Source: Escherichia phage p000v. Taken from it: a stretch of DNA of 64,000 nucleotides. The notes under the pieces are model-generated. The model did no database searches, was not told the DNA's origin, and worked only from the letters and a program-made list of their open reading frames with translations. The position numbers and the translations under genes are program-made. The stretch is taken from sequence record NC_055781.1; one strand, 5' to 3'. Positions 13,075 through 13,837 of the stretch are shown here, in pieces; within the stretch, counting starts at the first letter, position 1, and each line of letters starts with the position of its first letter.

Positions 13075-13289
13075 CTAAAGAACAGCATGAATACATTAAA
13101 GGGCTTATCTATGAATCTGAAATGGCGGCTATGATTTATGGGCGCCAGATTCAACGATTAGAATCTTTGCCTCCAACTAACGACCGCTTGTTAGTTCAGT
13201 CTCGTGCTAATCTGAAAAATGAATATCAGAATAAGTGGGCAGTAGCGACTAAAGCTCTTCACGAGTATATTGAATCTTTAGTAAAATAG
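13065..13289 (+). CDS. Hypothetical small protein
   Basis: 74-aa ORF overlapping the o-spanin 3' end; no motif recognised. Confidence 0.4.
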   Translation: MSMTKEQHEYIKGLIYESEMAAMIYGRQIQRLESLPPTNDRLLVQSRANLKNEYQNKWAVATKALHEYIESLVK

Positions 13290-13318
13290 TTTACAAACTC
13301 TCAGGAGCAGAGTATAAT
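13289..13318 (+). promoter_or_regulatory. T4-type early promoter
   Basis: GTTTAC 13289..13294, 17-bp spacer, TATAAT 13313..13318. Confidence 0.6.
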
Positions 13319-13346
13319 GCTCCTATGGATAATTGAGGAAATCTAA

Positions 13347-13646
13347 ATGAAAACATTACTAGAGAATTACATCAAACGGTCTGATGAGTATATTGATATC
13401 TGTCGTGGAATGTCACTTGGCAATTATGACAAAGATGCAGCAAAGGCACTAGATGAAGCAGGTAAAGCTCTTCGTAAAGCTGCTAAAGAAAAAGGGTTGG
13501 ATTTGCAACAACTCAAAAGTCATATGATTAAATTTATTTCTTCAAACGTTAGAAGTACGTCAATTAATAAAAACGTTGCTGAAATTAATAAAGACCGGCG
13601 CGAGCATAACATTCGTATTCTTGAAATTTTCTTAGGAATAAAATAA
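13347..13646 (+). CDS. Hypothetical early protein
   Basis: 99-aa ORF with RBS GAGGAAA and own early promoter; lysine-rich, helical. Confidence 0.45.
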   Translation: MKTLLENYIKRSDEYIDICRGMSLGNYDKDAAKALDEAGKALRKAAKEKGLDLQQLKSHMIKFISSNVRSTSINKNVAEINKDRREHNIRILEIFLGIK

Positions 13647-13837
13647 TGGACCAAGCCAAAATCGATAAGTTAATCCATACGCTTGTAGCAGATATCAATA
13701 CACGGGCTCTTCGTAAATCACAGAATGGCGATTCTTGGACTATGCAAGATTGCAAGAAAGGTGCTGAACTAGGACGTGAAATTGCTAAAATTCTTGGTGG
13801 ACAATTTGAATTTGCTGAAGAGGTAGTAAAACTGTGA
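13646..13837 (+). CDS. Hypothetical small protein
   Basis: 63-aa ORF translationally coupled (ATAATG overlap) to the preceding ORF and overlapping pseT start. Confidence 0.4.

Follow-up and report, generated by a model that had tools for sequence, protein, structure and literature searches.

A conserved early-promoter cassette and two accessory genes upstream of pseT in Escherichia phage p000v: probably one slot of a hyperplastic region rather than an inserted pair

In the 64,000-nucleotide stretch of Escherichia phage p000v analyzed here (NC_055781.1; the whole stretch is referred to as the window) two small open reading frames (ORFs) of 99 and 63 amino acids, termed ORF99 and ORF63 in the following, are located between pseT.1 and the kinase/phosphatase gene pseT. 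The original prediction described them as a pair with its own early promoter that was inserted between the spanin genes and pseT and might have a role in RNA repair or the evasion of host defense. We consider it fairly probable that the interval is instead one slot of the T-even hyperplastic early region, in which two accessory genes, dispensable and independent of each other, stand behind a conserved promoter cassette and are read together with pseT. Between 12.4 and 14.8 kb the sequence shares 96% identity with many Mosigvirus (RB69-like) T-even phages, and we assign the window to an RB69-like phage of this genus. Both ORFs are already known: they entered the catalogues with the RB69 genome, in whose record they are named RB69ORF231c and RB69ORF230c, each a hypothetical protein. 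The promoter, too, is of the standard T-even early kind.

ORF99 is a full-length match to phrog_2364 (E 1.3e-48; its residues 1-99 align with positions 1-105 of the 105-position profile), and it shares 96% identity with its RB69 counterpart. The RB69 record gives RB69ORF231c only 78 amino acids, counted from an internal start; relatives favor the 99-residue start with its GAGGA site, which occurs here as a Shine-Dalgarno sequence at 13335-13339, 7 nt 5' of the ATG. Members of this RB69ORF231c / RB32ORF217c family (the T6 copy is labelled ‘RB32ORF217c, similar to RB69ORF231c’) occupy the same slot before pseT in relatives and otherwise show no difference from ORF99. Homologs were found by tblastn in 707 phage records, at a single place in each. 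In every case examined, that is RB7 and T6 (Tequatrovirus), VR5 (Dhakavirus), MHG19 and TG1 (Tegunavirus), the homolog lies directly 5' of pseT, usually with overlapping stop and start codons.

As the original prediction had stated, T4 has three ORFs between alc and pseT compared to five in the window: pseT.3, pseT.2 and pseT.1 only, with pseT.1 directly abutting pseT (NC_000866). Orthologs of the two further ORFs were looked for at this position of T4, and it carries neither. The notion of an insertion does not follow from this difference, as ORF99 homologs directly precede pseT in T6 and across the genera named above, and of 520 records with a match to the Tequatrovirus pseT.1-ORF99-pseT stretch, 468 contain it almost completely. 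Among the matches listed, the T4-type ones (T4 KJ477685 and phage LH2) consist of two pieces covering 62%. The T4 junction (L001 8879-8939) equals the left and the right T6 junction (L090 6047-6107 and 6350-6410) joined within a shared ATGAAAA, and because of this the loss of ORF99 in T4 reads as a clean excision. By this comparison a clean deletion at a microhomology removed ORF99 from T4, and the gene is ancestral in T-even phages and no insertion; the pseT gene of T4 now starts in the context that formerly belonged to ORF99. Damaged copies occur as well: in T2 (L091 6420-6734) there is a stop at codon 4, and in the Tegunavirus TG1 (L007 2420-2788) the gene is split in two, a pseudogene. When a hidden Markov model (HMM) of ORF99 was run exhaustively against 1.8 billion protein representatives, it returned 6 matches, 5 of them of the T-even ORF99 family (including the fusion protein P0036 described below) and one a spurious repeat protein. 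To judge from this distribution, ORF99 is old and restricted to the T-even phages.

A possible outlier was observed in Karamvirus-like phages, where an ORF of 117-144 amino acids that ends at the pseT start (phrog_15029; loci L032, L035, L036, L038 and L039) may be a very distant homolog of ORF99. The two have the pattern LLExY..S..Y…LDEAG..LR.A.KA in common; in a small database hmmsearch reached E 4e-6, and the probability assigned by hhalign was only 43%.

The occurrence of ORF63 follows other lines. It matches phrog_8683 from end to end (E 2.2e-42; its residues 1-63 cover all 63 positions of the profile) and shows 100% identity with RB69ORF230c of RB69, from whose family nothing distinguishes it, apart from distant members that stand at other loci or are fused. 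Its homologs were found in 239 records with a distribution unlike that of ORF99. In Mosigvirus ORF63 is placed between ORF99 and pseT, in Kanagawavirus it is found 5' of pseT without ORF99, and in the Klebsiella phages of Jiaodavirus and Marfavirus it belongs to the motA-arn-asiA early region; on IMG/VR contigs possessing both genes (L025/L111, L042/L108, L043/L110) its distance to pseT is about 26 kb. In the Serratia jumbo phage Moabite it forms the C-terminal third of a 158-residue protein, with an N-terminal domain of 105 residues ahead of it. The family has 22 invariant columns among 18 diverse sequences, with the core LVxDINTRAL…WT..DCK.GA..GR. We conclude from the distribution that ORF63 is a separately mobile small gene, moving between loci and between phage groups.

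The two genes meet in one further form, the metagenomic protein P0036, an in-frame fusion of residues 1-43 of ORF99 and 24-63 of ORF63 whose join falls at a 12-nt sequence common to both (GCTCTTCGTAAA). In the window they are coupled as had been described, with one base shared between the ORF99 stop TAA and the ORF63 ATG (TAATG); the GTG start of pseT likewise overlaps the ORF63 stop (GTGA), so that all three genes are co-oriented and translationally chained. This chaining does not make them a unit. Because ORF63 occurs without ORF99, far from pseT and as a fused domain, the two genes are by their distribution neighbors in Mosigvirus and not an obligate pair. The comparative genomics of the interval thus leaves standing that T4 is devoid of both genes, whereas ORF99 turns out to be ancestral and ORF63 independent of it.

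The cassette ahead of ORF99 contains a −35 box TTTACA (13290-13295), a 17-nt spacer and a −10 box TATAAT (13313-13318) on the + strand, with an AT-rich lead-in 5' of the −35 box. It scores 11/12 against the sigma-70 consensus and is the top match of an 8-kb scan. The generic sigma-70 scan as such gave no excess over shuffled sequence (24 found compared to 24.5 expected), and therefore the specific T-even early pattern TTTACW-N17-TAYWAT was examined, which is the PST/T4 early-promoter consensus of the promoter-early stem-loop (PeSL) type (PMC4122927). This pattern occurs 7 times in the window, always on the + strand, where 0.29 matches are expected, and 0 out of 100 shuffles reached this number. 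Host sigma-70 RNA polymerase would recognize the T4-type early promoter at 13290-13318, and a transcription start is predicted near 13325. In sequence, spacing, orientation and its place before an early block the promoter resembles the sigma-70 dependent early promoters of T4 (GTTTAC(A/T)-N17-TAtAAT), with the difference that it is a predicted one.

Mosigvirus and Dhakavirus have 27 out of 29 promoter bases in common while the flanks diverge, which speaks indirectly for transcription starting there early in infection. The consensus of the cassette in the two genera is AAAgTAGTTTACAAACTCTyrGGAGCAGAGTATAATGCTCCTAyGGATwAT…TGAGGAAAT…ATG. In Dhakavirus the same cassette of 65 nt heads a different first gene, which codes for a 160-residue protein of phrog_4482 (VR5, L017); in one Dhakavirus without that gene (L018) it stands directly 5' of ORF99. 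The sequence 5' of the cassette differs between Dhakavirus and Mosigvirus. The cassette is not a dispersed repeat, as a test for such repeats found its 20-nt core GGAGCAGAGTATAATGCTCC once per genome and at this locus only. No terminator-like site was scored on the + strand between 13290 and 18000, and there is no gap 3' of ORF63; because of both, the promoter most likely drives pseT too, and it would head a unit of ORF99, ORF63, pseT and beyond rather than the pair alone. The promoter that had been proposed is thus borne out as a near-consensus T4-type early promoter, but it is not private to the two ORFs.

The cassette invites comparison with the PeSL elements, regulatory cassettes of T4-type hyperplastic regions (Arbiol 2010, PMC2839356; Comeau 2014, PMC4122927). 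Like these it matches the PST/T4-type consensus TTTACW-N17-TAYWAT (PMC4122927), carries a dyad of the AGNA…TCNT type, an AT-rich lead-in and a Shine-Dalgarno sequence with ATG at its 3' end, and its place in a hyperplastic region coincides exactly with an indel or replacement boundary between related phages. Two defining features are missing, the upstream terminator stem-loop and the repeated copies, and we regard the cassette therefore as PeSL-like and not as a PeSL. The stem-loop of a PeSL is located 5' of the −35 box and acts as a terminator, whereas the dyad found here (AGGAGCA/TGCTCCT, 13303-13309 and 13318-13324, the only one of at least 6 nt) spans the −10 box. It is not followed by a T-run and thus is no evident terminator; no terminator-like site was scored there, and the fold z-score is −1.25. 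Furthermore, PeSL copies are several, near-identical and recombining, while here a single copy per genome leaves no flanking second one for a mini-circle. As a separate observation, at least 4 of the 7 T4-type early promoters of the window (10700, 11884, 13290 and 25853, + strand) have a short inverted repeat in the 17-nt spacer, examples being CCACAA/TTGTGG, ACACCA/TGGTGT and CACAT/ATGTG.

Direct functional evidence on ORF99 comes from published HIDEN-SEQ data, which give the transposon-insertion fitness of every gene of phage Bas37 (KarlGJung, MZ501089; bioRxiv 10.1101/2025.11.20.689424). The ortholog of ORF99 is bas37_0056 (48% identity over the full length, E 9e-28), which lies directly 5' of pseT (bas37_0055). 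On E. coli K-12 it was classified as ‘Non-essential’, with 27 out of 30 TA sites disrupted (bioRxiv 10.1101/2025.11.20.689424). For five clinical isolates the same study gives the log2 fold change (log2FC) and the adjusted p. In CFT073 the values are +0.08 / 1.0 for bas37_0056 and −0.13 / 1.0 for pseT, in CFE303 −0.32 / 1.0 and −0.85 / 1.0, and in CFE331 +0.14 / 1.0 and +0.11 / 1.0. In the two isolates of uropathogenic E. coli (UPEC) where pseT is required, CFE299 (−0.02 / 1.0 compared to −1.90 / 0.00000 for pseT) and CFE336 (−0.63 / 1.0 compared to −7.58 / 0.00000), the ORF99 ortholog is not depleted. It is dispensable where PseT is indispensable, which argues against a role of ORF99 in PseT-dependent RNA repair and contradicts, for this ORF, the role that had been suggested.

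The same data bear on a neighboring gene. Directly 3' of pseT a gene of the cd.4 family (63 amino acids, 14733-14924, + strand) is 51% identical to bas37_0053 (E 1e-26), which was strongly conditionally essential in the UPEC isolate CFE303 (log2FC −5.84, adjusted p 0) and showed a trend of −2.26 in CFE299 (bioRxiv 10.1101/2025.11.20.689424). On our analysis this gene is a better candidate for counter-defense at this locus than ORF99 or ORF63.

The properties of the two products agree with their earlier description as lysine-rich and helical in the first case and small and charged in the second. ORF99 has 13 lysines, an isoelectric point (pI) of 9.55 and a mass of 11 kDa, and its AlphaFold2 model, built from an 11-sequence alignment, is an all-helical four-helix bundle (pLDDT 93.4, pTM 0.85). 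ORF63 (7 kDa, pI 6.55) has 20 charged residues out of 63 and was modelled from 18 sequences as a two-helix hairpin (pLDDT 84.6), which probably dimerizes into a four-helix bundle. The ratio of nonsynonymous to synonymous substitution rates (dN/dS) is about 0.1 for ORF99 and about 0.08-0.19 for ORF63, similar to pseT both within and between genera. By these values ORF99 and ORF63 are real genes under purifying selection, and yet they have repeatedly been lost. No variation is seen at the 3' end of ORF99 (…FLGIK), where the next gene has its AGGA ribosome-binding site.

Searches of Pfam, NCBIfam, PADLOC and PHROGs returned only unnamed PHROGs for ORF99 and ORF63; sub-threshold matches to TnsD, COMMD8_HN and uL22 were dismissed as weak. 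PADLOC found 0 families for ORF99, ORF63 and pseT.1, a weak test as it models defense systems and not anti-defense. A profile search of PDB sequences gave nothing below E 0.06 for either ORF, word-index searches found close relatives only, and literature searches on the ORF names had no matches. Structure prediction therefore depicts both proteins as helical, but without an informative homolog. Neither sequence appears to contain catalytic motifs.

In the reading we favor, host RNA polymerase would start at the T4-type early promoter and read through ORF99, ORF63 and pseT. Both small proteins would most likely bind, stoichiometrically and early in infection, to some macromolecule of the host or the phage, because they have small helical folds and no catalytic motifs, are under purifying selection and are frequently lost. 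Each of them could provide a benefit specific to a host strain or condition, in host takeover or counter-defense, independently of the other and of PseT/RnlA repair. Several points weigh against this reading. ORF99 adjoins pseT throughout several genera, as a functional link would also predict, with the adjacency being constant within syntenic T-even genomes only. The transposon data stem from a 48%-identical Tequatrovirus ortholog in five clinical hosts and cover ORF99 only, not ORF63. The binder mechanism would be derived solely from size, fold and the lack of motifs, and the promoter and transcription unit are predictions read from sequence alone.

The original proposal, in which the two genes are transcribed together as an accessory pair and support PseT/RnlA in tRNA repair or help to evade defense of the anticodon-nuclease type, now seems quite improbable to us. 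The promoter makes both genes early ones, ORF99 is translationally chained directly 5' of pseT in every genus having it, and ORF63 adjoins pseT in Mosigvirus as well as in Kanagawavirus, all of which would suit such a pair. PseT/RnlA repair was, however, defined in T4, which does without both genes; the two are distributed differently, Klebsiella phages carrying pseT keep ORF63 about 26 kb away from it, and bas37_0056 is not depleted in CFE336 or CFE299. The chaining could also be taken to mean that both ORFs act in cis as leaders, whose translation brings ribosomes to the pseT start while the peptides matter little. In addition to the stop/start overlap at every junction, the invariant ORF99 end with its AGGA site and the takeover of the ORF99 start context by pseT in T4 would fit. 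The dN/dS of about 0.1 along the whole length and the conserved folds speak, though, for selection at the protein level; insertions into bas37_0056 barely alter fitness where pseT is essential, and ORF63 is retained at loci with no pseT downstream. We thus regard a leader function as very unlikely.

The same values of dN/dS, comparable to pseT within and between genera, stand against the highly improbable reading in which the two ORFs have no function and are decaying as relics of the hyperplastic region. Absence in T4, the stop codon in T2, the split gene in TG1, the P0036 fusion and the non-essential ortholog in Bas37 might suggest decay, but the genes are intact in hundreds of genomes and ORF63 keeps its 22 invariant columns among 18 diverse sequences. 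The least probable of the explanations considered takes its cue from BASEL records, which call the ORF99 orthologs bas47_0056, bas40_0056 and bas37_0056 ‘putative homing endonuclease’, so that ORF99 would be such an enzyme or its remnant. Its presence and absence do vary between close relatives, as with mobile endonuclease genes. Pfam, NCBIfam and PHROGs nevertheless show no HNH, GIY-YIG, LAGLIDADG or other nuclease domain, the 99-residue all-helical bundle matches no solved structure by sequence, and the gene is found in single copy per genome at a constant position. The endonuclease label of some ORF99 records is unsupported.

A bolder version of the accessory-gene reading, which we think rather unlikely, assigns definite tasks to the two proteins. 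ORF63 would found a family of very small phage inhibitors directed against a target widespread in Enterobacterales, with the dimeric helical hairpin neutralizing a host defense or takeover target; T-even phages that infect Escherichia, Enterobacter or Klebsiella share the family, and Serratia jumbo phages have it as a domain. Less probably, ORF99 would be a strain-specific counter-defense factor whose target is absent from the five clinical hosts.

The features of the locus are collected in Table 1. In 41 T4-like loci compared, rnlA-alc-Rz-Rz1 and pseT are constant, and the interval between Rz1 and pseT is filled by at least 13 different ORF families, whose order varies, with a known function for none of the ORF families tested. 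Within it pseT.1 is conserved and borders the variable slot on the left. In Dhaka-, Kanagawa-, Karam- and Tegunavirus-like phages the slot is most often occupied by the phrog_4482 protein mentioned above (our family F4; no Pfam domain; for instance L006 2022-2504 and L009 2022-2504), which is absent from Tequatrovirus and Mosigvirus.

Table 1. Coordinates of the features in and around the slot between Rz1 and pseT in the window.
Feature	Position	Strand	Evidence
rnlA	10756-11880		
alc	about 11949-12443		
Rz/pseT.3	12431-12787		
Rz1/pseT.2	12784-13074		
pseT.1, 74 aa	13065-13289	+	phrog_2347, E 8e-38; named pseT.1 in RB69 and T4 records
Spacer, 57 nt	between pseT.1 and ORF99		
Early-promoter cassette (predicted)	13285-13346	+	best sigma-70 match in 8 kb; T-even early pattern; dyad; Shine-Dalgarno sequence
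ORF99, 99 aa (RB69ORF231c / RB32ORF217c family, phrog_2364)	13347-13646	+	ORF listing, profile match
ORF63, 63 aa (RB69ORF230c, phrog_8683)	13646-13837	+	ORF listing, profile match
pseT, polynucleotide kinase/phosphatase	13834-14733	+	phrog_505, E 2e-122; Pfam HAD_PNKP, AAA_33

Further observations concern the surroundings. An antisense ORF of 156 residues with a TTG start (13585-14055, − strand) overlaps ORF63 and pseT; it is open in Mosigvirus and shrinks to 68-108 amino acids in other genera, and because the frame is not kept open outside Mosigvirus we judge it as probably spurious. The alc ORF as listed (187 amino acids from 11880, + strand) begins inside the T4-type early promoter at 11884-11912, and a start at about 11949, equivalent to the RB69 annotation, appears likelier. 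Between the cd.x genes and cd a class-I 3-deoxy-D-arabino-heptulosonate 7-phosphate (DAHP) synthase of 330 amino acids is encoded (15828-16820, + strand; Pfam DAHP_synth_1, E 5e-75). RB69 has no DAHP synthase at this position; homologs are present in 211 phage records (Mosigvirus and T4-like phages of Klebsiella, Serratia, Enterobacter and Proteus).

The value of these results is mainly corrective: the two ORFs are no unit, ORF99 is ancestral, its endonuclease label lacks support and a role in repair is argued against. Beyond a tidier annotation their importance is little, as the slot behaves in the way described for T4-type hyperplastic regions. If either protein were a true host-specific inhibitor, it would represent one more small anti-defense family.

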